A stretch of DNA of 64,000 nt from an uncultured Bacteroidales bacterium (GCA_964489545.1 CAZAZE010000009.1:3035-67034), one strand, 5' to 3'; counted from the stretch's first letter, positions 19,830 through 52,273 are shown. The notes: a model not told the origin generated them from the sequence alone. Translations and numbers: made by a program.

Positions 19830-19843
19830 TAAAATCAAACACA

Positions 19844-21028
19844 ATGAACACGAAAGACAAGGGGATCAACACAAAACTGATCCATGCGGGCGCGTTTGAA
19901 GATGAGTTTGGCAGCGCAACTGTGCCTATTTATCAGACATCCACCTTTAAATTTAAAAGTGCCCAACATGGGGCGGATTGCTTTTCCGGGAAAAGCGACG
20001 GGTATATTTACACACGTATTGCCAACCCTACTATCAGGGCATTTGAGCAGAATGTTGCCGAACTGGAAAATGGTTACGATGGCATTGCAACCAGTTCGGG
20101 CATGGCAGCCATCAGCAGTGTTTTTATGGCATTGCTTGGCGGAGGCAGCCATATGATCAGCTCTGATGCTGTATATGGCCCGGTGAGGGGGCTGATTGAG
20201 CAGGATTTTTCGCGGTTTCATGTTGCGGCGACCTTTGTGAATACTTCAAACATCGACGAGATCATTGGGGCACTGCGCCCGGAGACCAAACTGCTTTATG
20301 TTGAAACGCCGGCTAACCCGACGATGAACCTGACGGACCTGGCCGCCTGCCATCGGGTTGCCCGGGAGCATCATTTACTCCTGGTGGTGGACAACACATT
20401 CTGTTCCCCTTATTTGCAAAAACCCCTCGATCTGGGGGCGGATGTCGTGTTGCATTCCATCACCAAGTTCATCAACGGTCATGCCGATATCGTCGGGGGC
20501 ATCGTTGTTGCAAAAGAACGGGAACTTAATCAAAAGATACGGCATTCGATGGTATATCTCGGATGCAATATGGACCCCACGCAGGCTTTCATGGTATTGC
20601 GCGGGATCAAGACCCTGGGGATCCGCATTGAAAGGGCGCAGGAAAATGCCCAGGCCATTGCCCATTTTCTGGAAAAACATCCAAAAGTGGCCTGGATCAA
20701 ATACCCGGGGCTGAAATCTCATCCTCAGCATGAGCTGGTCAAGAAACAAATGCGCGGACCGGGTTCCATGATGAGCTTTGGTTTGAAAGGCGGTTATGAA
20801 GCCGGGCGCGCGCTGATGGATAATGTGCACCTGGCGTTACTGGCCGTATCCCTCGGCGGAGTCGAAACCCTGATCCAGCATCCGGCGTCGATGACCCATG
20901 TGGCGATCAGTAAAGAGAACAAGCTGGCTGCTGGCATCACCGACGACCTGGTCAGGTTTTCCGTTGGCATTGAAGACGTTGAAGATATTATTCATGATCT
21001 GGAACAAGCTTTAAATAAAATTAATTAA
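19844..21028 (+). CDS. Cys/Met-metabolism PLP enzyme, methionine gamma-lyase-like
   Basis: TKLIHAG...TVPIYQTSTF...SITKFINGHADIVGG (PLP lysine). Length 394 aa. Confidence 0.85.
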   Translation: MNTKDKGINTKLIHAGAFEDEFGSATVPIYQTSTFKFKSAQHGADCFSGKSDGYIYTRIANPTIRAFEQNVAELENGYDGIATSSGMAAISSVFMALLGGGSHMISSDAVYGPVRGLIEQDFSRFHVAATFVNTSNIDEIIGALRPETKLLYVETPANPTMNLTDLAACHRVAREHHLLLVVDNTFCSPYLQKPLDLGADVVLHSITKFINGHADIVGGIVVAKERELNQKIRHSMVYLGCNMDPTQAFMVLRGIKTLGIRIERAQENAQAIAHFLEKHPKVAWIKYPGLKSHPQHELVKKQMRGPGSMMSFGLKGGYEAGRALMDNVHLALLAVSLGGVETLIQHPASMTHVAISKENKLAAGITDDLVRFSVGIEDVEDIIHDLEQALNKIN

Positions 21029-28405: not shown

Positions 28406-28516
28406 GAGATGACATCTCGCATGATTTTAGCATTTTTTAAATCATTGTTAATCAACATGTAAAATATCAATGTAAGTCGCATATGTGGCTGAAATGTGCC
28501 TGCGAGATGTCATCTC
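28406..28516. repeat. 16-bp perfect inverted repeat (GAGATGACATCTCGCA / TGCGAGATGTCATCTC) with a 79-nt spacer
   Basis: Arms at 28406-28421 and 28501-28516. Each arm also contains the internal palindrome GAGATG-N-CATCTC. Confidence 0.8.
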
Positions 28517-28555
28517 GTGATAATCTTTACCTTTATACGCTCCAAATCTACCCGT

Positions 28556-29101
28556 ATGAACATCAGGATTATTCCACGGCTTACGCTTGCTTTTTTAATA
28601 AGCCTTATGCTGACAGCCTGCGCCACACAGGACAAACAGCACGAAACGCTGGCCTCCAAAATCCAGTATGACGTCCCCATCGTCAGTAACGACCCGCAGC
28701 TTGACTGGTGGATCAACAACATCGAAGGGTCGCGAAGGGAGCCGTTCCTGCAAAGGATCATGGAAGCGGCCGAAAAAGGGGAAGTACGGGTGTACGACTA
28801 TTTCAATAAACCGTTATCCCCGCAACAGGTCCGGGCCATGGGCTCTGACACGGTCTACATGACGCTCATGCGGGAGTATCCACCGTATGAGGAATACGAC
28901 ACCATGGTCGTGCATACGGTTTCTTGGCGCGAGATCACCAAGATCCGGTTCCTGGAAGAATGGACCTGGATCCCGGGAAGCCTGGAGATCTCAAAAAGGC
29001 TGATCGGGCTGGGACCGGTGATCCAGCGGGAAATGGCCGGGGAACAATACAACCAGTTGCTGTTCTGGATCTATCCCGGCCCGGATTCCCCTCAGCCCTG
29101 A
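28556..29101 (+). CDS. Hypothetical lipoprotein
   Basis: MNIRIIPRLTLAFLISLMLTAC lipobox. No recognisable domain. Confidence 0.55.
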   Translation: MNIRIIPRLTLAFLISLMLTACATQDKQHETLASKIQYDVPIVSNDPQLDWWINNIEGSRREPFLQRIMEAAEKGEVRVYDYFNKPLSPQQVRAMGSDTVYMTLMREYPPYEEYDTMVVHTVSWREITKIRFLEEWTWIPGSLEISKRLIGLGPVIQREMAGEQYNQLLFWIYPGPDSPQP

Positions 29102-32245: not shown

Positions 32246-32311
32246 CCCGAACGTAGTAGAGCAAAGTATGAACTATTGAGACGTCAACGGGTTCACCCGT
32301 TGGTAAATAAT

Positions 32312-32343
32312 AAAAAAGGGCGCTCCCGATTCGGGAAGCGCCC
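32312..32343 (-). terminator. Rho-independent terminator (GC-rich stem followed by a U-run on the minus strand)
   Basis: Minus strand reads GGGCGCTTCCCGAATCGGGAGCGCCC TTTTTT, 24 nt after the stop of the giant gene. It also lies downstream of hpt. Confidence 0.8.
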
Positions 32344-33428
32344 TTTGCTTTGAAGCATGATTTCGGTTACCGGGTGACGATGATCTTCCGCATGACCTGG
32401 CTCTGGCCGGTGCGGATGGTCAGGGTGTAGATGCCTTTGGGCACGTTGCCCAGGTCGATGTCGAGCCGGCCCTGTCCGCTGATGACCACGTCGGCCTTTT
32501 CGTAGATGCGGATACCAAGGTGGTTCACCACTTCGGCCTGGTAGGTGGTTTCTGTCTTATTGACAAAGGCCACGGTGAACTTCCCGCTGTTGGGTATGGG
32601 GAAGATATTCAGGCTGGTGCCGGGCAGTTCGTCGATCCCCACGAAGATGACCTCCACGTGGTTGGATTCCTGTGAGGAGCAACCGTTGAGGGTGACGATG
32701 GTCCAGTAGAAGCCTTCCTCTTCGGCCTGGTGGGTCTGCCCGGTGGCGCCTTCGATGGGGTTACCGTTGAAGTACCACTGGTTTCCGTCGGGTGCGCTGC
32801 TGGTGAGCAGGTAGTCGCCGTCGACGGTCACGACCGGTGCGGGCGGGATGGGGTTGACGGTGACGAAGAAGGCGGGCGAGGCCGGTCCGTTACCGCAGTT
32901 GTTGACTGCGGCCACGGTGATGTTGCCGGAGCTGGCGCCGGGTCCGAAGAAGACCTTGATGGCGGGTGTTCCTTCGCCTTCGAAGATGGTGGCGCCGGCG
33001 GGCACGGTCCAGTCGTAGGAGAGGGCTCCGGCGACGGGCGCCACGCTGTAGCTGGCGTTTTGGCCCATGCAGAGTTCGTCAACGCCGGTGATGGCGCCGG
33101 GTGCCACGGGCACGCCCATGACGGTGACGGCGAAGCTGGCCGGTGTTGCGGCGGGGCATCCGGAAGCGTTGTCATAATTGACCGTGACGGTCTTGCTGCC
33201 CGGGGTGGTCCAGTTGACTTCGATCTGGTAGGTTCCCTGGCCGGAGACGATGGTGCCGCCGGTGGAGACGGTCCAGGAATAGTCGCTGAATCCCTGCTCG
33301 GTGGTGTAGACGAACAGGCCGGAGTTGGCGCACATCATATTCGATCCGGAGATGGTCGGCGAAGGCAGCCCGCTGACCTGGACGGGCATCACGGCGGGCG
33401 CGGCGGCGGGGCAGCCGGCGGCGCTGGT
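32312..33428. repeat. 1117-bp block identical to 39015-40131 (copy 1)
   Basis: Identical C-terminal 354 codons. Antisense-frame track ORFs are also identical (32828..33175 versus 39531..39878, both 115 aa), and spot checks of the DNA lines agree. The first difference is at 33429 (g) versus 40132 (a). Confidence 0.85.
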
Positions 33429-36400
33429 GTACGTCACGCTGAGCGACTGGGCGCCCGTGCTGTTCCACTGCACGTCGACCGTGGCGGTTCCTGCGCCGGC
33501 AATGATCTGGCCTCCGGCAGATACGGTCCAGACATACGATGACATTCCGGCTTCGGTGCTGTAGGTGTAGATGGACCCCAGGCAGGCCGGGTCGGCGCCG
33601 GTGATGGTGGGCACCGGCAGCGGGTTCACGGCGACGGCCAGGCTGCTTTGGGCGCCATTGCCGCAATTGCTGGAGCCGTAAACCGTAATGTCGCCAGAAA
33701 CCGACGTTTCATCAAAACTGACCGTGATGCTGTTAGTGCCTGCACCGGCGGTGATGGTCGCTCCTGCGGGAACGGTCCACACATAGGTTGTTGCATCCTG
33801 GATGGGAGCAACGGTATACACATTGCCCGCGCTGGGCTTGCAGATATTCTGCGGGCCGGTAATGGGCCCTGCGGCCGCCGGCGGCGGGCAGTAAGTGTTG
33901 AACATCTGGTCGGCGCCATAAGTGGTCCCCTCGGCGTTGGTACCGACGCAACGGAAATGGTATTCGGTATTGTCCAGCAGGCCCGCTATCTGGGCACTGA
34001 CTGCGGTTGGGCTCATGCCGTTGACCGTCAGCGGTGTGGCATTGGCAACATTGCCATACGCAGGAGTAAGACCCCATTCGAAGGTGACCGTGGTTTCCTG
34101 GTTGTTGGCTGTTACCGTTCCGTTCAGTTGTGCCGTGCTGATGAGCACGTTGCTGGCCGGGTTGGTCACCACCACCGGCAGTTCACCCAGTGTGGTAAAG
34201 GTCATATCGCTGCCGTATGAGGTTCCGCCGCTGTTGGTGGCATAGACGCGGTAGTGATACGTCGAGAAGATTTCCAGGCCGGAAAGGTCGACGGTGACGG
34301 CGACATCGGTGCTGCCGCTGACCTGTGCCGGTACCGCTGGCACGACCGTTCCGTAGCTGTCGGTCGGGCCGTATTCGAAGTAGACCATGGTATTGGAGTT
34401 GTTGGCGTTGACCAGCCCGTTGAGCGTTGCCCCGGTCGAAGTGATCCCGGTAGCCGCCTGGGTGGTCACCGTTGGCGGGGGAACCGTTTCGAAGGTCATG
34501 TCGTCGCCATAGATGATCAGACCGCCCGCACCGATGACACGTGCACGGAAGTGGTATACCGCGGAGGTAGTCAGCCCGGCCAGGTCGGCCGAATAGGCTG
34601 TCGGGCTGTTTCCGGTAACCGATGAAGGTACCCCGGCAACGCTATTACCGTAATTGGTATCAAATCCGTAATCGAAGTAGGTGGACACGTTCTGGCCAAC
34701 CGGGTTCACCGAAGCGTTCAATGTGGCCGAAACGGGGGTCACGCTGGTGGCCGGCATGGTCATGAGGTCAGGATCGTTCCCGAATTCGTAAGCGCCCATA
34801 TCCGGAGGACTGGTGCGGTTCTGGCCGGTAAAGTCCTTGGGCACATCCGGCAGGTAAACGCCCTGGTTGTTCAGCATGGTGTTCGTTGGCAGCGGGTTGG
34901 TCGGTGAAACGAAATTCGGGTTCATGTTTTCCGAGTTGAAATCCTGTCCTGTGGCTGCTTTCCATGCAGTGAAATCGGCTACCTCGGCTCCGTAATACCC
35001 GAAAGCGCTTCCGGTGGTATAATAATCATTGTAGTCGATGGCAGCAAAAGTGGTCGTCGAGGGTGTATAAACCGTATATGCTCTCGGATCAACCCCTGTA
35101 CGCGTGTTGGAGAAGATGTTGTTGCGAACGTCAATATTGCTGGTTGCCGTCGAAATGAACAGGCAGTGAGAATAAACACCGGCGGTGGTGCTTCCGAACG
35201 CACCGGTCAGGCTGATGGTGTTGTGCCACACTTTGTACCCGTTGCCGCCGACGATACGGATCCCGATGGGGCCATAGAAGTTCGACGTGCTGCCGTACAT
35301 ATCCAGGTCATAGATCAGGTTATTAGATACCTGGTTATTAACGGTGCCTGTCGTTGTAGCGAAATACATGGCGATGCAATAGTAGCTTGCCGTAGTATTG
35401 GTCTGGCCCATAGCATGGATATGGTTGTTGTGGAAGAGCGAATTGGCAATGGTGGTTCCGGTGTACAAACCATACTTGCTGCCGTTGTAGATCATATTAT
35501 AGATCTCGTTGTCGCTGACGACGGCGCCGTTGATGCTCTGGAACCGCATTCCGTACCCGGTGATGTAATCGGTATCGACGTCGGCGCCGATGGTGTTGTT
35601 TTTTACGACCAGGTTATCCAATTCCCCGACCGCCGGCAGACCATGGGCGATCAGGCCGTAATAAGCCCTGGAGATCCGGTTGTTTTCAATGGTGATCCCG
35701 TCGTTGTCCGCACCGGTGCCACTGGTGCTGATCGAGGTTCCGCCGACGAAGATGCCGATCTGGGATGTTACGGTATTGCTGCCGCCCTTGATGTGGCAGT
35801 TTTTGATGGTATTGTTGGAGGACCCCTGTTCCACGCCCAGGCTTGAGATCCAGATGGTGGCCGTGGAAGTGGAGGTGGCCGTGTTTTCGATCGTCAGGTT
35901 CCGGGTGGTGCCGCCGGGCACATTCGAGCCGTCGAAGACATAGTATTGTCCGCCTTCAAACTTAATGATGGAAGTCCCGGACCCGGTGATTGTGGGTGAT
36001 GCGCCGCTGGCCGGCCGGATGGTGATGGTGTTGGCGCTGCTGGCCCCGGCGACGGGCAACAGGACAATGGGCACGGTTTCGGCGTCGTAGGTGGCATCCG
36101 TCAGCTCAAACACGACCGGGCAGGTCACTTCGTAATTGACCAGGTCGGCTATGGCTGCGGTGAGCGTGGCATAGTCGCCGCCGGTACCCACCTGGAATGT
36201 ACCGCAGAGGGGCAGCAGGATGGTGTACGTCAGCGGCGGGTCAGGCGGGGTTGAGCAGGCCGGCGGGTTGCTGGTATAACCGCTGGCGCCCGCGGCGGGC
36301 ATTGCGCCGATATTCAAAGGATCGGCTTCGTCCTGTGCCACCAGGTAATAGGAAACCACATCTCCCACGGCAACCCCGGCGCCCAGGGTGAAGGAATACT

Positions 36401-38807
36401 GGTCGGTGCCGAGGTAGGTGGCTTGAACAGCGGTATATGCCCCGTTATTGATCTTCCAGTAGAGCATGGGTAAACCGGACCCGGCCGTGGGCACTCCGGA
36501 AGCATCGGTAATGGTGGTCACCAATGTTCTTTGGGTGAGTGATGCAGTATTGGGAAGTTGCGTAAACTGAATGGAGGGCGCCGTCAGGTCGGAGCCCAGG
36601 CCTCCGAATTCATCCGCGCCGATATCCGGGGCGGTAGGCGGGAAGGAGGCATTGACAGGATATCCTGCATTGGGATAACGGGCATCTCCGTCAAAGTCAG
36701 TCAGAATGTCCACAGGCGTTGACACGGTGATCCCGCCGCTTTCCAGCTGGGATGGGACATTGGTCCGCATGTGCAGATTGTAAGGGGCCGCGGTCTTGTT
36801 CTGGAAGGCAGGGTTCACGGCGACGGAAGCGGCGTCAGCGGGCGATACGAGCGCCTTGTAATCCATCAGGGTCTCGGCATTGTTGGTGCCGTCGGAGTAG
36901 ATCAGCCTGCTGGGGCCCGGGGTGCCTGCATAGAAGTTATTGTTATTCGATGTCGTCGCATAGGTCCCTATGGTGGTGGAACTGCGGCGGTAGGCAATGG
37001 TCGTGCCGTTGACCCCGGGGGTGGAAACATTGACAATGATGTTGTTCTTCAGTTCCAGAATCGGGGTGGTGGAGGCATAAAGACCAATCGTTCCGAAGTC
37101 ATCGCTGCTGGAGCTCGCATCCAGGTAAATCGTGTTGTTGTAAGCCCCATGTGATGTACCTCCGGAGAAATAGATGCCGTAGATAGAGGTGGCCAGCGTG
37201 GAAGCAGGCGCATATAATTCGGAAATAAAGTTGTTGTAGAGATAAACATTCGTTCCCGTCGAAACATAGATGCCATAAAGTGTTCCGGTTGCGGAAACCT
37301 TGTTCGCGTTCTTAATTTCATTGCCGTAAAAATTAACGGTGGTGCCGCCTGAAAGATAAGTGCTATACAAGGTTCCGTTTCCGTTAAACAGATTCTTCAC
37401 GGTGTTGCCGTAAATGTTTTTGGTCACGGCTGAATTGGTGACATACAATCCGTAAGTCGTACCCGAGGAGGCAATGTTGATGTTGTCCACAATATTATCG
37501 TGGCACTCCAGAATCGTTCCGCTTCCGGGGACATAGAATAAGTAATTGGCCCCGCCGCCGACCACGCTTTGCCGCCTGGAGTTGTTGGTTACGGTGTTGT
37601 TGTAAACCTGCGTTGTGCCGGCGGTGCTTGGCGAGCTGGAGAAATAGCAGTAGTAGATCGATCCGGTGGAAGTCGACGTCCCTGAACCAATTTCATTTCC
37701 TGAAACGGTATTGTTGTGGAAATAGGCCGTTACTCCGCCCGTGGAAATATACATCAGGTATACGGTACCGCTGGTGTGATTGGGAAGTTGATTGTTGATG
37801 ACGCTGTTGTTGTTATAATTTACGGTGTTTGTTGTGCCTGACGAACCCATGCCGGAATTGTAGATCCCGTAAAATGAGCCGGTCCCGTTATAGGTCATGC
37901 TGATGGTATTGTTGTATACCTCGACATTGGCATTGGTACTGGTCATCAGGTACATATTGTACAGCGAGGCAGAGCCCAGGTCGGCGGTGCCGGTGAAGTT
38001 ATTATTGGCGATCTTGATGTTATTCTGGTAATAACAATAGAGGCCGTAGCAGGCGGTGGTTCCGCCGCTGTTGCCCAGGCCGTTCACCACGTTGGTCCCT
38101 TCGACGCCCAGTTCGTTGTTCTGATCGTAAAAATCGTACGGAGCGGCGTCAGCCCGCCCGTAAATATAGAATGCATGATAGCAGTTGCTGACATTCAGGC
38201 TGAAGAATCTATTGTATGAATTGGTACCTGCAATGTCAGTAATGACCAGCTGTGTGGTCGAAGCTGTAGTGTGGTTGTTGGAGTAAATCGCCCGGGAGCT
38301 GGTATTGGCCGGGTTCAGGGAGATGGAAGAGTTTTTGATCACATTGTTCTGCGAGCCGTTGGTTTCGGATGCTTTGAGGATGGCGAAGGCCCATTCCATT
38401 TGCATCGCGCTGGTGGTGTTGGCCGCATTTTCCTGGATGTCGATCCCGTCGAACGTGACGTAATCGGCTCCGGAGAGGCAGATGACATAGTCCATGGTAC
38501 CGCTGCCGGGCGTGGCCGCCGTGATCAGCGGGTTGGCGCCCGCGCCGCTTTTCTGGAAGAAGATGGGGCTGGTCGACGAACCGGTCGTGGTGGTGATCAG
38601 ACCTGCGGTTGGAACGGAGAATGTCTCCGTATGGCCGGCTGCGACGCTGAATGTAACTCCGCCCGAGCCGGCGCCCTGGGCGTTCAAGGCGGTGATGGCC
38701 GCCTCGATCGTTGCGTAATCGCCGGGAATGGTCTTGGTACCGGTAAGCTGCCCAAAGACAATCTGGACGGCAATTACACATGAAATCAATAGTAGAAATC
38801 TTTTCAT
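32367..38807 (-). CDS. Giant (2146 aa) secreted surface protein: parallel beta-helix-like repeats, three FN3-like modules, four Cys-containing Ig/PKD-like modules, T9SS C-terminal domain
   Basis: Signal peptide MKRFLLLISCVIAVQIVFGQ; recurring NN-x-I/V turns; repeated Y-x-WT-V-P/S-x-G module; C-terminus LNIFPIPNSGKFTVAF...GIYTLTIRTGQSQVMRKIIVTR. Confidence 0.85.
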   Translation of the reverse strand: MKRFLLLISCVIAVQIVFGQLTGTKTIPGDYATIEAAITALNAQGAGSGGVTFSVAAGHTETFSVPTAGLITTTTGSSTSPIFFQKSGAGANPLITAATPGSGTMDYVICLSGADYVTFDGIDIQENAANTTSAMQMEWAFAILKASETNGSQNNVIKNSSISLNPANTSSRAIYSNNHTTASTTQLVITDIAGTNSYNRFFSLNVSNCYHAFYIYGRADAAPYDFYDQNNELGVEGTNVVNGLGNSGGTTACYGLYCYYQNNIKIANNNFTGTADLGSASLYNMYLMTSTNANVEVYNNTISMTYNGTGSFYGIYNSGMGSSGTTNTVNYNNNSVINNQLPNHTSGTVYLMYISTGGVTAYFHNNTVSGNEIGSGTSTSTGSIYYCYFSSSPSTAGTTQVYNNTVTNNSRRQSVVGGGANYLFYVPGSGTILECHDNIVDNINIASSGTTYGLYVTNSAVTKNIYGNTVKNLFNGNGTLYSTYLSGGTTVNFYGNEIKNANKVSATGTLYGIYVSTGTNVYLYNNFISELYAPASTLATSIYGIYFSGGTSHGAYNNTIYLDASSSSDDFGTIGLYASTTPILELKNNIIVNVSTPGVNGTTIAYRRSSTTIGTYATTSNNNNFYAGTPGPSRLIYSDGTNNAETLMDYKALVSPADAASVAVNPAFQNKTAAPYNLHMRTNVPSQLESGGITVSTPVDILTDFDGDARYPNAGYPVNASFPPTAPDIGADEFGGLGSDLTAPSIQFTQLPNTASLTQRTLVTTITDASGVPTAGSGLPMLYWKINNGAYTAVQATYLGTDQYSFTLGAGVAVGDVVSYYLVAQDEADPLNIGAMPAAGASGYTSNPPACSTPPDPPLTYTILLPLCGTFQVGTGGDYATLTAAIADLVNYEVTCPVVFELTDATYDAETVPIVLLPVAGASSANTITIRPASGASPTITGSGTSIIKFEGGQYYVFDGSNVPGGTTRNLTIENTATSTSTATIWISSLGVEQGSSNNTIKNCHIKGGSNTVTSQIGIFVGGTSISTSGTGADNDGITIENNRISRAYYGLIAHGLPAVGELDNLVVKNNTIGADVDTDYITGYGMRFQSINGAVVSDNEIYNMIYNGSKYGLYTGTTIANSLFHNNHIHAMGQTNTTASYYCIAMYFATTTGTVNNQVSNNLIYDLDMYGSTSNFYGPIGIRIVGGNGYKVWHNTISLTGAFGSTTAGVYSHCLFISTATSNIDVRNNIFSNTRTGVDPRAYTVYTPSTTTFAAIDYNDYYTTGSAFGYYGAEVADFTAWKAATGQDFNSENMNPNFVSPTNPLPTNTMLNNQGVYLPDVPKDFTGQNRTSPPDMGAYEFGNDPDLMTMPATSVTPVSATLNASVNPVGQNVSTYFDYGFDTNYGNSVAGVPSSVTGNSPTAYSADLAGLTTSAVYHFRARVIGAGGLIIYGDDMTFETVPPPTVTTQAATGITSTGATLNGLVNANNSNTMVYFEYGPTDSYGTVVPAVPAQVSGSTDVAVTVDLSGLEIFSTYHYRVYATNSGGTSYGSDMTFTTLGELPVVVTNPASNVLISTAQLNGTVTANNQETTVTFEWGLTPAYGNVANATPLTVNGMSPTAVSAQIAGLLDNTEYHFRCVGTNAEGTTYGADQMFNTYCPPPAAAGPITGPQNICKPSAGNVYTVAPIQDATTYVWTVPAGATITAGAGTNSITVSFDETSVSGDITVYGSSNCGNGAQSSLAVAVNPLPVPTITGADPACLGSIYTYSTEAGMSSYVWTVSAGGQIIAGAGTATVDVQWNSTGAQSLSVTYTSAAGCPAAAPAVMPVQVSGLPSPTISGSNMMCANSGLFVYTTEQGFSDYSWTVSTGGTIVSGQGTYQIEVNWTTPGSKTVTVNYDNASGCPAATPASFAVTVMGVPVAPGAITGVDELCMGQNASYSVAPVAGALSYDWTVPAGATIFEGEGTPAIKVFFGPGASSGNITVAAVNNCGNGPASPAFFVTVNPIPPAPVVTVDGDYLLTSSAPDGNQWYFNGNPIEGATGQTHQAEEEGFYWTIVTLNGCSSQESNHVEVIFVGIDELPGTSLNIFPIPNSGKFTVAFVNKTETTYQAEVVNHLGIRIYEKADVVISGQGRLDIDLGNVPKGIYTLTIRTGQSQVMRKIIVTR

Positions 38808-38912
38808 GCTTGATAGATTTAAGTTAATTTTAGAATTTATTGAGGTGTAAATATTTAATTATCAATATTTAAAATAGTCATAGATAATTTGTCCTGCTAA
38901 AAATATGAATTA

Positions 38913-38930
38913 TTGACTAATTAAAGTCAA
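38913..38930. promoter_or_regulatory. Palindrome TTGACT-aattaa-AGTCAA upstream of giant gene 1
   Basis: Perfect 6-N6-6 inverted repeat about 106-123 nt upstream of the start at 38807. Confidence 0.25.
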
Positions 38931-39014
38931 AATGAAATGTTAAATTTTAATGGAATTACTAGTTAGCGGATGATTAATGTCGGCTGATTCAGAATTTGAA
39001 ACAAGAAATGAATG

Positions 39015-39046
39015 AAAAAAGGGCGCTCCCGATTCGGGAAGCGCCC
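39015..39046 (-). terminator. Identical copy of the terminator at 32312-32343
   Basis: Same sequence, at an offset of 6703 nt. Confidence 0.8.
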
Positions 39047-40131
39047 TTTGCTTTGAAGCATGATTTCGGTTACCGGGTGACGATGATCTTCCGCATGACC
39101 TGGCTCTGGCCGGTGCGGATGGTCAGGGTGTAGATGCCTTTGGGCACGTTGCCCAGGTCGATGTCGAGCCGGCCCTGTCCGCTGATGACCACGTCGGCCT
39201 TTTCGTAGATGCGGATACCAAGGTGGTTCACCACTTCGGCCTGGTAGGTGGTTTCTGTCTTATTGACAAAGGCCACGGTGAACTTCCCGCTGTTGGGTAT
39301 GGGGAAGATATTCAGGCTGGTGCCGGGCAGTTCGTCGATCCCCACGAAGATGACCTCCACGTGGTTGGATTCCTGTGAGGAGCAACCGTTGAGGGTGACG
39401 ATGGTCCAGTAGAAGCCTTCCTCTTCGGCCTGGTGGGTCTGCCCGGTGGCGCCTTCGATGGGGTTACCGTTGAAGTACCACTGGTTTCCGTCGGGTGCGC
39501 TGCTGGTGAGCAGGTAGTCGCCGTCGACGGTCACGACCGGTGCGGGCGGGATGGGGTTGACGGTGACGAAGAAGGCGGGCGAGGCCGGTCCGTTACCGCA
39601 GTTGTTGACTGCGGCCACGGTGATGTTGCCGGAGCTGGCGCCGGGTCCGAAGAAGACCTTGATGGCGGGTGTTCCTTCGCCTTCGAAGATGGTGGCGCCG
39701 GCGGGCACGGTCCAGTCGTAGGAGAGGGCTCCGGCGACGGGCGCCACGCTGTAGCTGGCGTTTTGGCCCATGCAGAGTTCGTCAACGCCGGTGATGGCGC
39801 CGGGTGCCACGGGCACGCCCATGACGGTGACGGCGAAGCTGGCCGGTGTTGCGGCGGGGCATCCGGAAGCGTTGTCATAATTGACCGTGACGGTCTTGCT
39901 GCCCGGGGTGGTCCAGTTGACTTCGATCTGGTAGGTTCCCTGGCCGGAGACGATGGTGCCGCCGGTGGAGACGGTCCAGGAATAGTCGCTGAATCCCTGC
40001 TCGGTGGTGTAGACGAACAGGCCGGAGTTGGCGCACATCATATTCGATCCGGAGATGGTCGGCGAAGGCAGCCCGCTGACCTGGACGGGCATCACGGCGG
40101 GCGCGGCGGCGGGGCAGCCGGCGGCGCTGGT
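39015..40131. repeat. 1117-bp block identical to 32312-33428 (copy 2)
   Basis: As for copy 1. Confidence 0.85.
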
Positions 40132-43100
40132 ATACGTCACGCTGATGCTCTGGGAGCCGAGGCTGTTCCACTGTACGGTAACGGAAGCCGTTCCGGCTCC
40201 GGCAGTGATCTGTCCGCCTGCCGAGACGGTCCAGGCATATCCGGTCATACCCGATTCAGTGGTATAGGTATAGCTGGAACCGATACAGCCAATGGTGGCG
40301 CCTGTTATAGACGGCACCGGCAGAGGGTTCACGGTGACTGCCAGGTTGCTTGCAGCGCCGTTGCCGCAGACACTGGTGCCATATACAGATACATTTCCTG
40401 AAACGGCCTGAGCGCCGAAGTCAACCGTGATGGAATTGGTGTTCGCCCCGGCCACGATGGTTGCTCCTGTGGGAACAGTCCATGCATATCCGGTGGCATA
40501 GGTGATCGGCGCCACCGTATATACCTGTCCGGGTGTGGACTGGCACAAGGCGGTGGGTCCGGTAATGGCTCCTGCCGTTTCCGGGATCGGGCATGCTGTA
40601 GTAAACATCATGTCCTGGCCGTAGGTTGTCCCGGCTGGATTCTGAGCGACGCAGCGGAAATGATAGGAGGTATTGTAGCTCAGGCCGGAAAGGTTAGCCA
40701 GGACCGGTGTTGTGACATCTCCCGAGACGCTGGCCGGAACACCGGGGGCGGTGCTGCCGTAACCGTTGGTCAGGCCCCATTCGAACCAGACCGTCGTGAG
40801 CTGGTTGTTGGCATTGACCGTGCCGTTGAGGGTAGCGGTGAAGTTACCGATCCCCGACGCCGGGTTGGTCACAACAGTGGGCGGGTTAGCACCGGTGGTG
40901 AAGGTCGCATCTGCGCCGTAGGTCGTTCCTGCCGTGCTTGTGGCCACAACGCGGTAATGATAGACCTGGCCGGTCAGCAGGCCGGTAAGATCAAAGCTCA
41001 CGGGGGTCAGGACGCCTCCCGAGATCGGGCTTTCTGCCGCTGTGACCATTGTGCCGTAGGCAGGAGAGGTGCCATATTCAAATGATACGGTTGCAGTCTC
41101 GCAATTGGCATTGACTGTTCCGTTCATGGTGGCAGAATTCGTGCCGATATTGCTGGCGTTGTTGGTTACTGCAGTTGGCGCGGCGGTTGCGTCGGTCATG
41201 AACATCATGTCCCCGCCATAAGAAGTCACATTGTCGGCCGTGATCACGCGGATCCTGAAATGATACGTCGTTGCAGGATCAAGACTGGCAATACTGGCCG
41301 TGACATTTACAGGCGTGTTGCCCGTCACCTGCGCTGGCGTACCGGCGATGGTGCTGCCGTATGCATTGGTCAGACCGTAGTCGAAGTAGGTGTTAACAGT
41401 ATTGCCGTTGGCCATGACCGTTCCGTTTATTACTGCGCTTTCGCATGTAATATTACTGGCAGCTGTTGTGGTAATCTGCGGGTTATTACCAAATTCCAGT
41501 GCGCCCATGTCAGGTGGGTTGGTCCGTGTGATACCAGCCTGGTCTTTGGGAACGGTGGCCAGGTAATATCCCAGGTTATCCAGCGCGGTATTGGTCGGGT
41601 GCAGGTCGGAGGGGCTTGCAAAGGATGGATTGATGTTCTTCGAGTAGATATCCTTTCCTGTGGCAGCCTGCCAGTCGGCCAGCGTCAGCTTGTCTGAACC
41701 CATGTAACCGATAAACGGACTGATTCCATCAACATAATAGTTGTTGTAATCGATATCCGTGAATTGTGTATTGGTGCCGGCAGTTAAAACAGCGTATGTT
41801 TTATGTGCCATTGAACCCGAAATGGGCTGAAGAGAATTCTTCAGGATGTTGTCGCGGATATCCAGCAAAGTGACACTGCTCAGCGCTGTGATACAGCCTG
41901 TCCAGCTGCTGTATGAAGACGAGAGCACATTGCCTTCCAGGTTGATGGTGTTGTGATAGATCTTCATATTCCCGCCGGCCCCGATATAAATTCCATGCGG
42001 GTTGAGAGAACTGACGCTGGCGGAATATCCGTCGGCTTTGATATTGTAAATGGAATTATTGATGATCTCGGTGACTGTCGTGGCATCGGCTGAAATATAA
42101 ATGCCGTATTGCCCCCAGCCGCCGGTCCCGGTGTAATACCAGTCGTGGATGTTGTTGCTGTGTATTTTCGTGTTGGTAGATCCGGTTATCATGTAGATTC
42201 CGGCCTGGGAGTAATTCGCATTGCCCAGCGGAGCCCCCATGATTTCGTTGTCCCTGATCAGCGTATTGTCGGCATAACTCACAACAATGCCCCGGTACTG
42301 GATGGCTTCCGCGTCGACAGAGGAACCGATGATGTTGTTGGTGACCTGTCCGTTGGTGGCCACAGAGCCGGCGACACCGGCGAACTGGATCCCGTACCGG
42401 GCGTGGCTGATGGTATTGTTGTGGATCACAATATTGTCATATCCGCCGCCGGATGCATTTAAAATAATGGCATATGTGCTGTTGGTCACCTGCGGAGTTG
42501 CCTTTATAGTGCAATTCTTAATGGTGCAATTGCTGGCAGGATTGCCTCCACTGTTAAAGACGCCTATGGTGTAGGAACTGGAAGTGGTACTGGTATTCTC
42601 CCAGGTCAGGCTTTTATCATCGCCGCCGCTGTTCGATCCGTCAATAGTAAGGTAATCAACACCATACAGTACAATTATGCCGGTTGTGGAACTTCCGGTG
42701 ACTGTGGCGGTTACGCCGGCTTTGGGCTTGATGGTGACTGGCCTCGACGGATCTTCGCCCAGGTACGGAATTACGATCAGCGGGAAGGTTTCTCCGGCCG
42801 AGTAGCTGGCATCCCACAACTCAAACGTCACGGGCCCGATCACATCCTTCAGGTTGAGATCGGCTATTGCGGCGGTAAGGGTAGGATAGGTCTGGCCGGC
42901 GCCAACCGCATAGGTTCCCGAAAGGGTCCCGACGATCACATAACTGGCGGGCGTGGTGGGCGGTGTACTGCAGGCCGGTGGATTTGCCGTAAATCCGGCA
43001 GCGCCTCCCGAAGGATTGGCCCCGATATTGGGCGTGGGGGCGACATTATCCTGTGCAACGATGTAATAGGAAACCTCATCATTCAAAACAACCCCTGTAC

Positions 43101-45747
43101 CAAAGGTAAAGCTGTAATCGTTACCGCCGAGATATGCCGCCTGTACCCCGGTATAGGCGCCGGCGTTGATCTTCCAGTAGAGCATCGGAAGCCCTGTTCC
43201 AACGGTCGGTACCCCTGAAGCATCAGTGATGGTGGCTGTCAGGGTGCGTGCTCCTGTGCCGGAAGTGTTGCTCAGCGGGGTGTATACAATATTCGGGGGC
43301 GTCAGGTCGATCGGAATGCCCGTAAATTCGTCCGCTCCGACATCGGGAGTGCTGCCGTTGCGTGCCTGGCCGTCGAAGTCGTCAGTGATACCGGCAACGG
43401 GCGTCCCGCCGCTTTCGATCTGCGTGGCTATGGCTTCATTGATGTGCAGGAAATCTGCACTTGTGCCGGTCAGGCTCTTGAAATTGGGATCTTCGGTAAA
43501 GGAGGAACCCTCAGCAGGCGCCACCAGGGCCTTATAATCACCAATACCCTGCGCCAGGTTGGTTCCGTCGTAAAAAACGAGACGTGTGGCACCGGGCGTA
43601 CCTGCATAGTAAAGGTTGTTGTTGGAGGCTGACGCGAAGTTGGTAAGCGATGTGCTGGAACGCTGATAGGCCACAGTGTAACCGGTTCCCGCCGGGGTGG
43701 ATTTGTTGACGATGACGTTGTTTTTCAGCGTGAGCGCAGCCGTGGTTGCAGTCGTGGAGGTAGTGACATACAATCCTGCAGTGGCAAAGTTCGCTCCGGT
43801 ACTGCTGGCGCTGAGGTAAACAGAGTTAAATGAAATATTGATCGCAGTAGTCGTGCTGGTGGTGGTCACATTGATCCCCCGGACCGATGGGGCGGTGGGA
43901 CCCGTGGAACTGGCGGCCGGGGCCCTGAGGTCGCCGATCAGGTTGTTGTAAATGCTGGCAACACCTGATGTTCCCAGGCTGCCCTGGAGGATACCAGATA
44001 CGGTGGGCGCGCCCGTAGAAGTGCTCTGAATGTTCCAGATCTTGTTCTTGAAGATGTTCGGGGAACTGCTCGCCATATTGATCCCGGCAATTGTAGTCCC
44101 CGCGCCGGTAATGTTGTATATCTGGTTTAAGCTGACCGTGCGTGTGCCGGTGGTAGTGAAGGCATACAAGCCGTATACGGTTCCGGTGCCGTTGTGGGTC
44201 AGGTTCCTGATAACGTTGTCGTTGTAATTTTCATTCGTCGGGGAACTGATATTGTACATTCCGTATAAGGCACTGGTCCCGGTGGTCTTGATGCAGCTTA
44301 GGTTCTCTATAATGTTGTTGTTAGCCACGACAGTGGTCCCCGAAGTCTGGATCCCGTAAAGCGTGCTCGTCGATCCTGTGCCGTCAATACTAAGGTTAGA
44401 CACCGAATTGTTGCTTACGGTCTGGGTAGTTCCGCTGGAAACATAAATGCCAATGGTCGTTCCGCCCGTAGTGCCGGTCCGGAAATGATTGGAAACAGTG
44501 TTATCGGTGACATTCACTGCCGTCGCCGACCCGGAGTTGTAGAGCAGGTAATTCACCCCGGACCCGGCCAGCGACACTGCACTGTAATTCGTATTGGATA
44601 CAGTGTTGTCGTTGATGTTGACTGTTGCCGCCGATGCTGAACTCCATATTCCGTAAAACACCCCGGTAGTGGCAGTAAGATATTCCCCGGTCAGGACATT
44701 ATTGTTGATATTCACGGTATTGCCTGCTGCGGTAGAACCGATGACATTCTCGATCATCGCCACCTGCGAGGTGGTGCCGCCGCCTTTAATCGTGATATTA
44801 TTGTAATTAATGCTGGCATTGGCACTGGTACCGGCCTGCGCATAGATGCCCCGCAGAGTGGAGGGATGGTTAACACCTGCCCCGTTGTTGTTGTTGATGG
44901 TGTTGTAAGAGATGTTCACATCCCAGACATTGTTTACCCGGATTCCGGCAGAAGGGTTGGTGGACCCGGTTCCACCCCCGAAATTAAGAATGGTGTTGCC
45001 GGTGGTGGGTGAGGATCCCCCGATATCATTGCCGGTGTCGCCCAGCGTGAACGGTGTGGCTGCGGCATACCCGTTGATCACAATACCATAGTTACAGTTC
45101 TGCAAAGTGTTGGAATAAAACATGTTGAAAGAGTTGGTTCCATTTGCCGAGGTTGGGGTCAGTGCTGTGGTTTGCGCGGCGGCGGTCGCGTTGATCACAT
45201 TGATCGCCTTGGAACCTTCCACTGAAGGGCCGCTTCCGGATGCGAAGTTCTGCCTGTTGAGCGTCACCACGCAGTTCTTGATGGTGTTGTACTGGCAGCC
45301 ATTGTCGGCGTCGGCCTTGAAGAAGGCAAACCCGTACTCCATCATGGCATTGCCGCTGGCATTGGGATCGACCAGCTCGATACCATCGATGGTTACGTAA
45401 TCCGAACCGGCCAGGTTCCAGATCCCGTCCTGCACGGCCGAGTTGGGCGCGTTGGCTCCGGCATAAGCGGTGATCAGCGGAAGAGCGCCCGCCCCGCTTT
45501 TCTGGAAGATGATGGGATTGGCGGCCGTACCTGTGGCGGTCACTGATAAGGGCGCCGTGATGAGCTCAGTGTAGCCGGAGGCAATGTTAAACGTGACTCC
45601 GCCGGCACCCACGCCCTGGGCGTTGAGCGCGGTGATGGCGGCCTCAACGGTCGCATAGTCGCCCGGAATCGTTTTGACGCCGGATAACTGCCCGAAGGAT
45701 AGCTGGAAAGCTGCCAGGGCAAAAGTAAAAAGAAGCAGTTTTTTCAT
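39070..45747 (-). CDS. Giant (about 2225 aa) paralog of the adjacent surface protein; the last 354 codons are identical
   Basis: Signal peptide MKKLLLFTFALAAFQLSFGQ (ATG at 45747; track start 45768). Same architecture as 32367..38807. Confidence 0.85.
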   Translation of the reverse strand: MKKLLLFTFALAAFQLSFGQLSGVKTIPGDYATVEAAITALNAQGVGAGGVTFNIASGYTELITAPLSVTATGTAANPIIFQKSGAGALPLITAYAGANAPNSAVQDGIWNLAGSDYVTIDGIELVDPNASGNAMMEYGFAFFKADADNGCQYNTIKNCVVTLNRQNFASGSGPSVEGSKAINVINATAAAQTTALTPTSANGTNSFNMFYSNTLQNCNYGIVINGYAAATPFTLGDTGNDIGGSSPTTGNTILNFGGGTGSTNPSAGIRVNNVWDVNISYNTINNNNGAGVNHPSTLRGIYAQAGTSANASINYNNITIKGGGTTSQVAMIENVIGSTAAGNTVNINNNVLTGEYLTATTGVFYGIWSSASAATVNINDNTVSNTNYSAVSLAGSGVNYLLYNSGSATAVNVTDNTVSNHFRTGTTGGTTIGIYVSSGTTQTVSNNSVSNLSIDGTGSTSTLYGIQTSGTTVVANNNIIENLSCIKTTGTSALYGMYNISSPTNENYNDNVIRNLTHNGTGTVYGLYAFTTTGTRTVSLNQIYNITGAGTTIAGINMASSSPNIFKNKIWNIQSTSTGAPTVSGILQGSLGTSGVASIYNNLIGDLRAPAASSTGPTAPSVRGINVTTTSTTTAINISFNSVYLSASSTGANFATAGLYVTTSTTATTAALTLKNNVIVNKSTPAGTGYTVAYQRSSTSLTNFASASNNNLYYAGTPGATRLVFYDGTNLAQGIGDYKALVAPAEGSSFTEDPNFKSLTGTSADFLHINEAIATQIESGGTPVAGITDDFDGQARNGSTPDVGADEFTGIPIDLTPPNIVYTPLSNTSGTGARTLTATITDASGVPTVGTGLPMLYWKINAGAYTGVQAAYLGGNDYSFTFGTGVVLNDEVSYYIVAQDNVAPTPNIGANPSGGAAGFTANPPACSTPPTTPASYVIVGTLSGTYAVGAGQTYPTLTAAIADLNLKDVIGPVTFELWDASYSAGETFPLIVIPYLGEDPSRPVTIKPKAGVTATVTGSSTTGIIVLYGVDYLTIDGSNSGGDDKSLTWENTSTTSSSYTIGVFNSGGNPASNCTIKNCTIKATPQVTNSTYAIILNASGGGYDNIVIHNNTISHARYGIQFAGVAGSVATNGQVTNNIIGSSVDAEAIQYRGIVVSYADNTLIRDNEIMGAPLGNANYSQAGIYMITGSTNTKIHSNNIHDWYYTGTGGWGQYGIYISADATTVTEIINNSIYNIKADGYSASVSSLNPHGIYIGAGGNMKIYHNTINLEGNVLSSSYSSWTGCITALSSVTLLDIRDNILKNSLQPISGSMAHKTYAVLTAGTNTQFTDIDYNNYYVDGISPFIGYMGSDKLTLADWQAATGKDIYSKNINPSFASPSDLHPTNTALDNLGYYLATVPKDQAGITRTNPPDMGALEFGNNPQITTTAASNITCESAVINGTVMANGNTVNTYFDYGLTNAYGSTIAGTPAQVTGNTPVNVTASIASLDPATTYHFRIRVITADNVTSYGGDMMFMTDATAAPTAVTNNASNIGTNSATMNGTVNANCETATVSFEYGTSPAYGTMVTAAESPISGGVLTPVSFDLTGLLTGQVYHYRVVATSTAGTTYGADATFTTGANPPTVVTNPASGIGNFTATLNGTVNANNQLTTVWFEWGLTNGYGSTAPGVPASVSGDVTTPVLANLSGLSYNTSYHFRCVAQNPAGTTYGQDMMFTTACPIPETAGAITGPTALCQSTPGQVYTVAPITYATGYAWTVPTGATIVAGANTNSITVDFGAQAVSGNVSVYGTSVCGNGAASNLAVTVNPLPVPSITGATIGCIGSSYTYTTESGMTGYAWTVSAGGQITAGAGTASVTVQWNSLGSQSISVTYTSAAGCPAAAPAVMPVQVSGLPSPTISGSNMMCANSGLFVYTTEQGFSDYSWTVSTGGTIVSGQGTYQIEVNWTTPGSKTVTVNYDNASGCPAATPASFAVTVMGVPVAPGAITGVDELCMGQNASYSVAPVAGALSYDWTVPAGATIFEGEGTPAIKVFFGPGASSGNITVAAVNNCGNGPASPAFFVTVNPIPPAPVVTVDGDYLLTSSAPDGNQWYFNGNPIEGATGQTHQAEEEGFYWTIVTLNGCSSQESNHVEVIFVGIDELPGTSLNIFPIPNSGKFTVAFVNKTETTYQAEVVNHLGIRIYEKADVVISGQGRLDIDLGNVPKGIYTLTIRTGQSQVMRKIIVTR

Positions 45748-46030
45748 GATTTTAGGATTAAAGTTCATATGAAGACTTAAAAAATCATTACATGATTATT
45801 ACAAAATCAACAAAATCAAAAACGAGAAACTGGAAGAATTTTGAGAGAACCCGGGAAAGAAATATGAGTATAAAGTTACGAAATAACCTTTCGAAATATT
45901 AAGCTATGTGTTAAAAAAATGATGATTTCGATCACTTTTTGAATACAGATCTGATAAGGAGCACAGGGTGGCCTGATTTCAGGTTGACCGGGATTCTGAT
46001 TATCTTTGCCCTTCATTAAACAGTTCAACC

Positions 46031-47035
46031 ATGTCTGTCCCCAATTTCGTCGATTATGTCAAGATCCACTGCCGCAGCGGCAAGGGCGGTGCGGGCTCGG
46101 CGCACCTGCACCGGGCGAAGTACATCCCAAAGGGCGGCCCCGATGGGGGCGACGGGGGGCGCGGCGGCCACATCATCCTGAAAGGAAACCGACAACTCTG
46201 GACCCTGCTCCATCTGAAATACACCAAACACATCAAGGCCGGTAACGGCGAGCCAGGAGGGCCGTCGCTCAGCACCGGCGCCAGCGGGGACGACAAGATC
46301 ATCGAGGTGCCCCTGGGCACCGTGGCCCGGTTGGATGAAACCGGGGAAACGCTGTTTGAGATCACCGAACACGACGAAACCCGAATCCTGCTGCCCGGCG
46401 GCAGGGGCGGCCTCGGCAACGACCATTTCAAATCGGCCACCAACCAGACCCCGCGCTTTGCCCAGCCCGGCGAACCGGCACAGGAAGCCTGGATCATCCT
46501 GGAACTGAAACTGCTGGCCGACGTCGGACTGGTGGGCTTTCCCAACGCCGGGAAATCCACCCTGCTGTCCGTCGTCAGTGCCGCCAAACCCGAAATCGCC
46601 GATTATCCGTTCACGACGCTTACACCAAACCTTGGAATTGTTTCTTATCGCGACGGGACCTCGTTTATCATGGCCGATATCCCCGGGATCATAGAAGGCG
46701 CACACGAAGGCCGCGGCCTGGGACTTCGCTTCCTGCGTCATATCGAACGAAATTCACTGCTGTTGTTCATGATCCCGGTCGATGCGGACGATATCAGGAA
46801 AGAATTTGAGATCCTGCTCAATGAATTGAAGCAGTATAACCCCGAACTCCTTGACAAGCCCCGCCTGCTGGCCCTGACCAAAACCGATATGATCGACGAA
46901 CAGATGAAGGAGGAAATGCGCCGCGAACTGCCGCCCGTGCCTTACGTGTTTATTTCGTCAATAACCGGCGACGGCATCATGAAACTGAAGGACATGATCT
47001 GGAAAGAACTGAACCGCAGCCATTCATTCGACTGA
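46031..47035 (+). CDS. obg: GTPase Obg
   Basis: [53 protein letters not shown]. Confidence 0.92.
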
Positions 47036-47037
47036 TC

Positions 47038-47616
47038 ATGCTCGAAACCCTGAATAATATTGATACCAGCGTCTTCCTCGCTGTCAATGGCGCCCACAAC
47101 GCGTTTTTCGACACGGTCATGTTCTGGGTTTCCGACAAATGGATCTGGATCCCGTTGTATGTGTTCCTGGCCTACCTGGTCATCAGGCATTACGGGCGTA
47201 AAAGCTGGATTTTCCTGGCCATGGCCGGCCTCGTTGTCGTATTCACCGACCAGACTTCGGTGAACCTGTTTAAATTCGTTTTTCTCCGCCCCAGGCCCTG
47301 CCACGAGCCGGAACTGGCCGGCCTCGTCCACCTGGTCAATGGAAAATGCGGCGGTCCGTATGGTTTTATTTCCTCGCACGCGGCGAATTCCTTCGGGATC
47401 GCAGCCTACCTGGCGCTGGTTCTGGGAAAGAAGATCCGGTTTTTCACCCCGGCCATCCTGCTCTGGGCCGCCTTGCTATCCTACAGCCGGGTTTACCTGG
47501 GCGTGCACTACCCCGGCGACATCCTCGCCGGCGCCCTCTGGGGTTCCGCCCTCGGCGCCGCCGTTTTCATCCTCACAATAAAAATACCCCCCCCAACATC
47601 AATCACTAAACCTTAA
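47038..47616 (+). CDS. PAP2-family lipid phosphatase
   Basis: FISSHAANSF and YSRVYLGVHYPGDILAG motifs. Confidence 0.8.
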   Translation: MLETLNNIDTSVFLAVNGAHNAFFDTVMFWVSDKWIWIPLYVFLAYLVIRHYGRKSWIFLAMAGLVVVFTDQTSVNLFKFVFLRPRPCHEPELAGLVHLVNGKCGGPYGFISSHAANSFGIAAYLALVLGKKIRFFTPAILLWAALLSYSRVYLGVHYPGDILAGALWGSALGAAVFILTIKIPPPTSITKP

Positions 47617-47696
47617 TAATTAAGCATTAATAATTAAGCACTAATAATTAAACATTAAACATTAAACATTAAACATTAAACATTAAACACTAAACA
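47617..47696. repeat. AT-rich tandem arrays (TAATAATTAAGCAY x ~2.5, then TTAAACA heptamer x ~7) filling a convergent spacer
   Basis: Runs from the TAA of the PAP2 gene (47614-47616) to the TAA of the minus-strand gene (47697-47699). Confidence 0.85.
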
Positions 47697-51582: not shown

Positions 51583-51620
51583 TGCGGGGAATTTTTTTTA
51601 CGAATTTAGCGAAGAATGGC

Positions 51621-51731
51621 GAATGTACTATGTAGTAATTACTATGTTCTAATTTCTAAGTAATGCATTCTCTATTTTCTTCCCCGCTTCCCTTAGAACA
51701 TAGAACATAGTAATTACTACATAGTACATTC
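51621..51731. repeat. 31-bp perfect inverted repeat with a 49-nt spacer
   Basis: gaatgtactatgtagtaattactatgttcta (51621-51651) and its exact reverse complement (51701-51731). The right arm begins 1 nt from the stop codon of the 51732..52196 gene. The left arm ends 39 nt from the start at 51582. Confidence 0.9.
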
Positions 51732-52196
51732 TCAGATTTTCTCCGGATCCTGCGTGAGATCCCGGATGCCCTTGTAAAGCTCTATAAGGAGGGTGATGAT
51801 GGTTATACCAAACAGCACCAGCAGGCCGATCTTGATCCACTTCGTCCAGGTTTCATCGAAGTTGAACGGAAAGATGACGTAGGTCATGATCAGGGAGAGC
51901 GCCCCGAAGACATTGGTGACGGCCTGGGCCAGGTGTTTGAACCAGCGGTTGTCGTAGAAGATGAACAGGGCCTGGGCGATGATGGAGGCGTAGATGGACA
52001 GTTCGATGTAGAACAGCGCTTTGTCCCAGTCTTCGTTCAGGAAATTCACCCCCCAGTCCTGCAGGTTGCGCAGCACCCAGATAAAGGCGATCATGAACAG
52101 GATGGCGGCGATATAGCCAATGCGGCGGGCGGGACCTGCAGATTTCCCGGAAGATCTTTTCCCGGAAGCAGGTTTCTTTTTGGGTTTGGATTGCAT
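51732..52196 (-). CDS. Hypothetical membrane protein with a Lys-rich N-terminus
   Basis: MQSKPKKKPASGKRSSGKS followed by four hydrophobic segments. ATG at 52196. Confidence 0.5.
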   Translation of the reverse strand: MQSKPKKKPASGKRSSGKSAGPARRIGYIAAILFMIAFIWVLRNLQDWGVNFLNEDWDKALFYIELSIYASIIAQALFIFYDNRWFKHLAQAVTNVFGALSLIMTYVIFPFNFDETWTKWIKIGLLVLFGITIITLLIELYKGIRDLTQDPEKI

Positions 52197-52273
52197 GGTT
52201 GAAATTTTTCGGAAAGTTAAAAAAAACCTGTGAGGTCCATAGGGCCTCACAGGTTTATTATGGTTGGCAAGCG

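Follow-up and report, generated by a model that had tools for sequence, protein, structure and literature searches.

Tandem giant genes for predicted type IX secretion cargo in an uncultured Bacteroidales bacterium share an identical 3′ block, probably through gene conversion

Results

Two adjacent giant genes with identical 3′ ends

Sequence analysis of a 64,000-nt stretch from an uncultured Bacteroidales bacterium (GCA_964489545.1 CAZAZE010000009.1:3035-67034; hereafter, the window) revealed two tandem genes on the minus strand, here named A and B, whose 3′ ends are identical over 1117 nt. Our comparisons make it very probable that A and B are old tandem paralogs whose last 1.1 kb has stayed identical through gene conversion, in which homologous recombination carries sequence non-reciprocally from one copy to the other. 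Both products passed the curated cut-offs of the two models for the T9SS (type IX secretion system) type A C-terminal sorting domain (CTD), set at 27 bits for PF18962 and 23 bits for TIGR04183, and are, therefore, predicted to be T9SS type A cargo and giant cell-surface proteins.

The match between 32312-33428 and 39015-40131 is exact, at a constant offset of 6703, and maximal, with a mismatch at either end, in agreement with the first-pass annotation of this DNA. Self-BLASTN of the window revealed no other copies of the block. In each gene, it comprises the last 353 sense codons (not 354, as originally counted), the stop codon, and 55 nt beyond it. These 55 nt include the whole terminator hairpin, as had also been claimed, with a 13-bp stem followed by T6 (terminator scan and RNA fold, −28.6 kcal/mol, z = −5.3), and the identity ends at the last T. 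Since the identical hairpin is located between B and A, B would form a transcription unit separate from A. The coding part begins with the last ~10–18 residues of one PKD_6 repeat and continues through two whole PKD_6 repeats, a 75-aa Cys-containing domain, and the CTD. The earlier description of two and a half Ig/PKD-like repeats ahead of a Cys-containing domain and a T9SS CTD was, thus, accurate apart from the half repeat, of which only those ~10–18 residues are shared. The genes and the elements of the block are as follows.

32367..38807, minus strand: gene A, 2146 aa (open reading frame [ORF] list, Pfam and NCBIfam matches)
39070..45768, minus strand: gene B, 2232 aa (ORF list); architecture as in A, with the second helix Beta_helix/NosD-like
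32312..33428, minus strand: first copy of the identical block, with the final 353 codons of gene A, its stop codon, and 55 nt of 3′ untranslated region including the terminator
39015..40131, minus strand: second copy of the identical block, with the final 353 codons of gene B, its stop codon, and 55 nt of 3′ untranslated region including the terminator
32315..32346, minus strand: intrinsic terminator hairpin of A; 13-bp stem, 6-nt loop, then T6, the last T of the block being 32312
39018..39049, minus strand: terminator hairpin of B, same sequence as the hairpin of A
32376..32606, minus strand: T9SS type A CTD (Por_Secre_tail); PF18962 38 bits, TIGR04183 27.7 bits
32628..32852, minus strand: 75-aa Cys-containing domain; weak Ig_7 (CHU_C-associated Ig-like) match, Pfam E = 0.024, under the curated cut-off
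32877..33359, minus strand: PKD_6 repeats 3 (33144-33359) and 4 (32877-33110), entirely inside the block
33399..33617, minus strand: PKD_6 repeat 2 of A, containing the block boundary 33428/33429 (per-repeat Pfam scan, translation check)
33429..33668, minus strand: zone directly 5′ of the block (PKD_6 repeats 1–2), ~77% nt identity to 40132-40371, slightly above the 55–65% found farther upstream

The block edges are abrupt and do not follow domain borders

In a codon-aligned profile of A against B, nucleotide and third-position identities are both 100% within the block and fall in a single step to 74% and 57%, respectively, over the 30 codons adjoining it. Farther upstream, the two genes share 49–73% of all nucleotides and 33–60% of third positions; on this profile, the ~74% nucleotide identity beside the block is the family baseline. 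The sharp boundary reported by the first-pass annotation was, thus, reproduced, and the gradual decay upon full alignment that it had named as an outcome contradicting its claim was not observed, the decay being stepwise. The first mismatch on the head side is a synonymous TAC/TAT difference at 33429-33431. Because this boundary lies within a PKD_6 repeat rather than at a domain border, it marks where recombination ended and is not a joint made by the shuffling of domains. At the other end, the flanks past the terminator T-run are unrelated (~25% identity, the random level), with the end of a convergent hpt-like (phosphoribosyltransferase) gene on one side and a 207-nt AT-rich spacer before gene A on the other. 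The probability of a run of 1117 matches at 77% per site is log10 P ~ −127, and that of 353 identical third positions at 57% is ~ −86; chance identity is, therefore, excluded with a margin of over 80 orders of magnitude.

The duplication is older than the identity of the tails

Relatives of the two genes were collected by running the tail against the representative genomes of GTDB and the metagenomes of JGI, which recovered uncultured Bacteroidales with best matches of 60–67%. Among them, a 132-kb metagenome contig (L020) carries a B-type gene (g1) followed by an A-type gene (g2), in the same tandem order as in the window. Residues 3–994 of B are 71% identical to L020 g1, and full-length B is 58% identical to L023. 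A is orthologous to L020 g2 (69% identity over the full length), L005 g2 (67%), and L019 (66%). The head of A alone is 69% identical to L020 g2 and L005 g2 and 63% identical to L006, but just 41% identical to that of B. The earlier proposal that one identical module stands under two different heads is, thus, upheld. The heads group by type across genomes and L020 holds an orthologous pair in the same order, which indicates that the A/B duplication predates the split of these lineages.

The tails behave differently. Within the tract, A and B are 100% identical to each other, versus 58–62% amino acid identity in the PKD part and 35–43% in the CTD to L020 g1/g2 and L005 g2. The two tails of L020 are themselves not identical, with CTDs sharing 48% of their amino acids and an older tract of 79–91% nucleotide identity over approximately residues 1734–2003 of A. 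An old duplication combined with identical tails within one genome points to gene conversion, and not to a recent duplication or to selection.

The tail does carry a secretion signal and a stalk that must stay functional, and strong purifying selection, or a recent duplication of the whole gene followed by fast divergence of the heads only, could be imagined on that ground. The identity, however, extends to 353 of 353 third positions and to 55 non-coding nt, so that selection at the protein level cannot be its cause. Moreover, the CTD is the part that diverges fastest between genomes (34–53% identity), the heads cluster by type and not by genome, and a neighboring Reeler-domain T9SS cargo protein has a CTD without detectable similarity to that of A and B, which argues that T9SS function does not demand identical tails. 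Synonymous-site identity and the orthology pattern already refute this explanation, and we regard its probability as negligible.

Short-read assemblies branch at the block edge

Short-read contigs of the locus were found in Logan via exact look-ups of the neighboring Obg and PurE proteins. Logan assembles reads into de Bruijn graphs with k=31 and keeps each 31-mer a single time (PMC12424806). One contig of the same strain (L042, SRR12489243), 100% identical to 40102-47674, comes from the head of B and ends 30 nt (k−1) inside the block, which implies that a second sequence context joins at the block edge in the reads. Another (L049, SRR27603623), which belongs to a strain with 97.3% identity in the flank, has its first base at 33428 and extends across the whole tail and its terminator as far as the hpt-like gene and purE. 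Two more contigs, L045 and L047, stop 30 nt beyond a variant site at 32356. Judged from these contigs, the repeat and its head-side boundary are present in the raw data under a different assembler, and also in a second strain. The first-pass annotation had considered that a single copy, duplicated by the assembly, would overturn its claim; the short-read graphs instead branch exactly at the block edge. Exact look-ups of the full A and B proteins gave no match, as expected from short-read contigs that break at the block and, therefore, leave no full-length product of A or B on record. A protein search with residues 1201–1803 of A for Logan contigs bearing the A head was swamped by FN3/PKD repeat proteins and gave nothing closer than 62%.

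These data also bear on whether the assembler or polisher could have duplicated one tail, or homogenized two diverged ones. Perfect identity over more than 1 kb is a possible product of consensus polishing with multi-mapping reads, and the source assembly of the window is not open to inspection. Such an artifact is nevertheless very improbable in our judgment, given that the window contains no N, both ORFs are intact, and each copy of the block has unique sequence on either side. The end of L042 at 30 nt into the block requires a second context joining there in the reads, a contig of a ~97% strain from another study starts at 33428, and near-identical tails of the same sort occur in three unrelated assemblies. 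Furthermore, polishing erases a handful of differences at most and cannot make a step from 74% to 100%.

The block predates the split of ~97% strains and has probably been re-homogenized

The ~97% strains have both block ends, namely 33428 and the junction between the terminator and the A-specific flank, the latter differing from the window by two substitutions and one T. In contigs L045, L048, and L049, T5 takes the place of T6, and the substitutions in the terminator region correspond to window positions 32356 and 32331. The presence of both ends in these strains indicates that the block predates the strain split. Between L049 and the window, 10 of 1116 block sites differ, versus 0 of 1117 between the two window copies. 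Had the copies evolved independently since a conversion before the strain split, ~10 differences would be predicted between them, and the Poisson probability of observing none is P(0|10) = 4.5e-5. The simplest reading of 10 differing sites between strains and none between copies is repeated re-homogenization limited to the block. The first-pass interpretation of a recent gene conversion or recombination is supported, with a qualification of the word recent: conversion is favored by heads that group by type and by the diverged tails of L020, while the ends shared with ~97% strains make the block older than the strain split, with re-homogenization since then.

We weighed these observations against a single recent event without ongoing concerted evolution, either a conversion or a replacement facilitated by homology with an anchor on only one side, in which case the boundary seen elsewhere would come from the spread of this allele by recombination between strains. 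The block does show one clean step, with no nested older tracts just upstream, and the lack of flanking homology past the T-run would fit either a template switch at the hairpin or illegitimate recombination that homology facilitated from one side. On the other hand, the strains that have both ends differ at 10 block sites where the window copies differ at none, the junction of the terminator with the A-specific flank is the same in those strains save for two substitutions and one T, and tracts of several ages occur in the gene family. A single event is, accordingly, improbable in our view, though less so than an assembly artifact.

As a separate observation, L045, L048, and L049 carry a 23-nt tandem duplication just downstream of the terminator of A, at window ~32283-32312.

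Tracts in other tandem arrays

All three other tandem arrays recovered (L005, L017, and L020) have a tract in the 3′ region, with different ends in each. In L005, g1 and g2 share a near-identical 3′ block of 473 nt, including an exact run of 379 nt, which ends 7 nt before the stop codon, and their terminators differ. In L017, the identity is ~90–93% across the last 165 codons and 36 nt. When genomes are compared, no part of the tail diverges more than the CTD, with 34–53% amino acid identity, but within a genome it is 100% identical in the window, 99% in L005, and ~90% in L017. The 75-aa Cys-containing domain is the best-conserved tail part across genomes (64–83% amino acid identity). Read together, these alignments reveal conversion tracts of several ages across the gene family.

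Some further relatives display mosaic patterns. The single-copy homolog at 5036-11530 of L002 is A-type over approximately residues 67–680 (first helix) and B-type over approximately residues 836–1300 (second helix), indicating that recombination between paralogs would also have reshaped heads in the past. Between L019 and L020 g2, which come from different samples, ~90 codons of the PKD region (A residues ~1884–1973) are 100% identical amid 56–82% identity around them, which suggests that tail segments recombine between strains or species. The locus of a distant relative, L037, contains a 707-nt tandem direct repeat at 19412-20118 and 20144-20850 with 96% identity.

Donor direction and base composition

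The nearest relative is a 1.5-kb JGI fragment (L041) that is B-type upstream of the boundary. This fragment is ~85% identical in nucleotides to B on both sides of the boundary, whereas it matches A at only 66% of positions upstream but at 84% downstream, a pattern which suggests that the tail of B overwrote that of A. The GC content at third codon positions (GC3) is 0.86 in the shared tail at 32370-33428 and 39073-40131, compared with 0.74 (0.74–0.80) in A just upstream, 0.63 (0.60–0.66) in B, and 0.66–0.75 in neighboring housekeeping genes. GC3, thus, passes more smoothly into the block from A, and the CTD of the block is slightly closer to that of the A-type L020 g2. Substitutions relative to L041 are asymmetric between strong and weak, at 79:46 within the tail compared with 14:28 upstream (Fisher p = 0.001). 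The raised GC3 and the G/C skew limited to the tail may be compatible with GC-biased conversion, the substitutions being unpolarized.

Proposed mechanism and points against it

We propose that a founding conversion would have copied one tail over the other, with its distal end probably anchored in the conserved terminator, where homology from the ancestral duplication stops. Later RecA-type exchanges would start easily in the perfectly identical block and would abort where identity falls to ~75%, such that the interior is re-homogenized while the boundary becomes fixed and self-perpetuating. This model of exchange and abortion is based on the way homologous recombination generally depends on sequence identity. 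GC-biased repair of heteroduplexes may, in addition, have raised the GC3 of the tract.

Several points weigh against gene conversion between old paralogs as formulated here. The head–tail junctions are deduced from contig ends and not seen on single molecules, and the A-side junction is unseen in short reads. Likewise, the evidence that the ~97% strains share the boundary comes from contig ends at 33428 and from the junction of terminator and flank, with the B-side tail unrecovered, and strain mixtures within samples could also make branches in the graphs. The Logan samples at 100% identity may share a project with the assembly of the window, which would make the assembler independent but perhaps not the DNA, and polishing could have removed a few true differences between the A and B copies. 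The donor direction is ambiguous, since L041 favors B, whereas GC3 continuity and CTD similarity favor A. Finally, the GC3 excess could reflect selection on codon usage, as it is mildly present in single-copy relatives too.

Other routes to a shared 3′ end were considered and rejected. A diversity-generating retroelement, or another RNA-templated replacement of the 3′ end, was discarded because no reverse transcriptase domain was detected in the window ORFs scanned and the 1117-nt repeats are identical, with no A-to-N pattern. An RNA-templated variant of conversion, for which the sole hint is that the block stops at the terminator's last U, has at most a very slight probability. Insertion of a mobile cassette or by a site-specific system does not agree with the joint at 33428/33429, across which both genes keep their frame and register inside one PKD_6 repeat, at ~77% identity. 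The self-BLASTN of the window revealed no other repeats flanking the block, nor any off-diagonal DNA similarity between the PKD_6 repeats, thus dismissing out-of-register exchange among them.

Gene layout and neighborhood

A and B are laid out alike, with a signal-peptide-like N-terminus (hydrophobic stretches assessed by eye), two long beta-helix-type regions, FN3/PhoD_N-like domains, four PKD_6 repeats, the Ig_7-like domain, and the CTD. The true start of gene B is probably the second Met, at 45747. Housekeeping genes lie next to the pair (purE, the hpt-like gene, obg, and PAP2), and two further features of the locus are listed below.

28496-29101: GldN-like gene
38808..39014, minus strand: unique AT-rich intergenic region, presumed to contain the promoter of A; without a counterpart downstream of A

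A third, more distant giant paralog lies at 52274-58771 and does not have the shared tail. It encodes 2165 aa with beta-helix and FN3 regions and no T9SS CTD at its end, and it is followed on the same (minus) strand by ORFs of 172 aa and 945 aa without a Pfam match. The region as a whole (48745-58771) may represent a split or degenerate gene, or another export route.

Elsewhere in the window, the segment 2-5727 (minus strand) is a low-GC island (33–45%, versus ~55% elsewhere) that encodes SspC (PADLOC 1222 bits; the ORF runs past the window start), SspB/DUF4007, and an HNH-domain protein. It looks like an Ssp phosphorothioate-type defense island and was probably acquired horizontally. A ~90-nt imperfect palindromic repeat, with copies 88% identical, is present at 5906-5995 and 8161-8250, and also at 9145-9233 versus 11075-11161 (inverted). 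It flanks an ankyrin-repeat ORF, is located upstream of a NADH-dehydrogenase/formate-dehydrogenase-like cluster, and resembles repetitive extragenic palindromes or miniature inverted-repeat transposable elements, with no Rfam family; an Rfam scan of the window as a whole gave no match.

Discussion

Homogenized 3′ segments under diverged upstream regions have precedents. In Helicobacter pylori, as summarized in PMC3960876 (citing Pride & Blaser 2002), the 3′ segments of babA/babB and homA/homB are strongly similar within a strain and undergo concerted evolution by RecA-dependent intragenomic gene conversion; the same summary describes 5′ and middle segments that diverge and group by type across strains. 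Going by that account, the homogenized part is a C-terminal export or anchoring module and the variable part a functional head, as would be the case for A and B. The bab and hom genes, however, are ~2 kb genes for beta-barrel outer membrane proteins at dispersed loci, whereas A and B are adjacent 6.5-kb genes for Bacteroidales T9SS cargo whose shared block includes the terminator.

Closer in phylogeny, the C-terminal repeats of rgpA, kgp, and hagA of Porphyromonas gingivalis are identical within and between genes, break short-read assembly, and underlie modular domain rearrangement (PMC5266723). These, too, are Bacteroidales T9SS surface proteins with shared C-terminal sequence. Their shared units are hemagglutinin/cleaved-adhesin domains at dispersed loci that are shuffled as whole modules, unlike the unit shared by the tandem genes A and B, which is made up of PKD_6 repeats, a small Ig-like domain, the CTD, and a terminator and has a boundary that cuts a domain. 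Our literature searches turned up no account of T9SS tails evolving in concert in any species but P. gingivalis.

Recombination-dependent homogenization of paralogs, with tract ends set by the loss of identity, is also familiar from tufA/tufB and the rRNA operons. There, whole genes are homogenized under strong selection for sameness, whereas in A and B only the 3′ sixth is homogenized and the heads are ~41% identical. As for base composition, Lassalle et al. in 2015 reportedly described GC-biased gene conversion in bacteria, in the setting of allelic recombination between strains. The A/B tract likewise has raised GC3 and an excess of strong bases, but it concerns paralogs in one genome and offers a hint only. 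Taken together, the A/B case is ordinary in kind, an instance of concerted evolution with no new mechanism, and is distinct in its tandem arrangement, its inclusion of the terminator, and its boundary inside a domain.

A broader proposition is that the tail (PKD_6 stalk, Ig-like domain, CTD, and sometimes terminator) acts as a self-perpetuating homogenization unit across a family of giant T9SS cargo genes of uncultured Bacteroidales, with conversion confined to the block, GC-biased repair driving its composition, and the blocks serving as handles for deletion, amplification, or head exchange. We put this forward tentatively, as rather unlikely in its full form. If it were true, the sorting domain would be the fastest-evolving part between species and yet identical within a genome, and populations would vary in which head is displayed.

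What the locus offers at present is a well-resolved case of partial concerted evolution, with an unconverted orthologous pair, three more arrays bearing tracts of different ages, and strain data that fix the boundary to the nucleotide. For genome analysis, short-read assemblies are interrupted at blocks of this sort, which can also distort orthology calls, dN/dS estimates, and domain phylogenies of such proteins. For the organism, the arrangement places two different heads on one identical stalk and sorting signal, and the two 1.1-kb direct repeats, separated by 5.6 kb, could readily serve as a substrate for deleting or amplifying A. Head swapping and a 6.7-kb deletion, both anticipated by the first-pass annotation, are plausible consequences of the block, and what speaks for them at present is the A/B-type mosaic head of L002. 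Such blocks predict strain-level variation in copy number and heads, and our findings further suggest that tandem T9SS cargo genes of environmental Bacteroidales can share stalk and sorting modules by recombination, with precedent in P. gingivalis and, in another phylum, in H. pylori.

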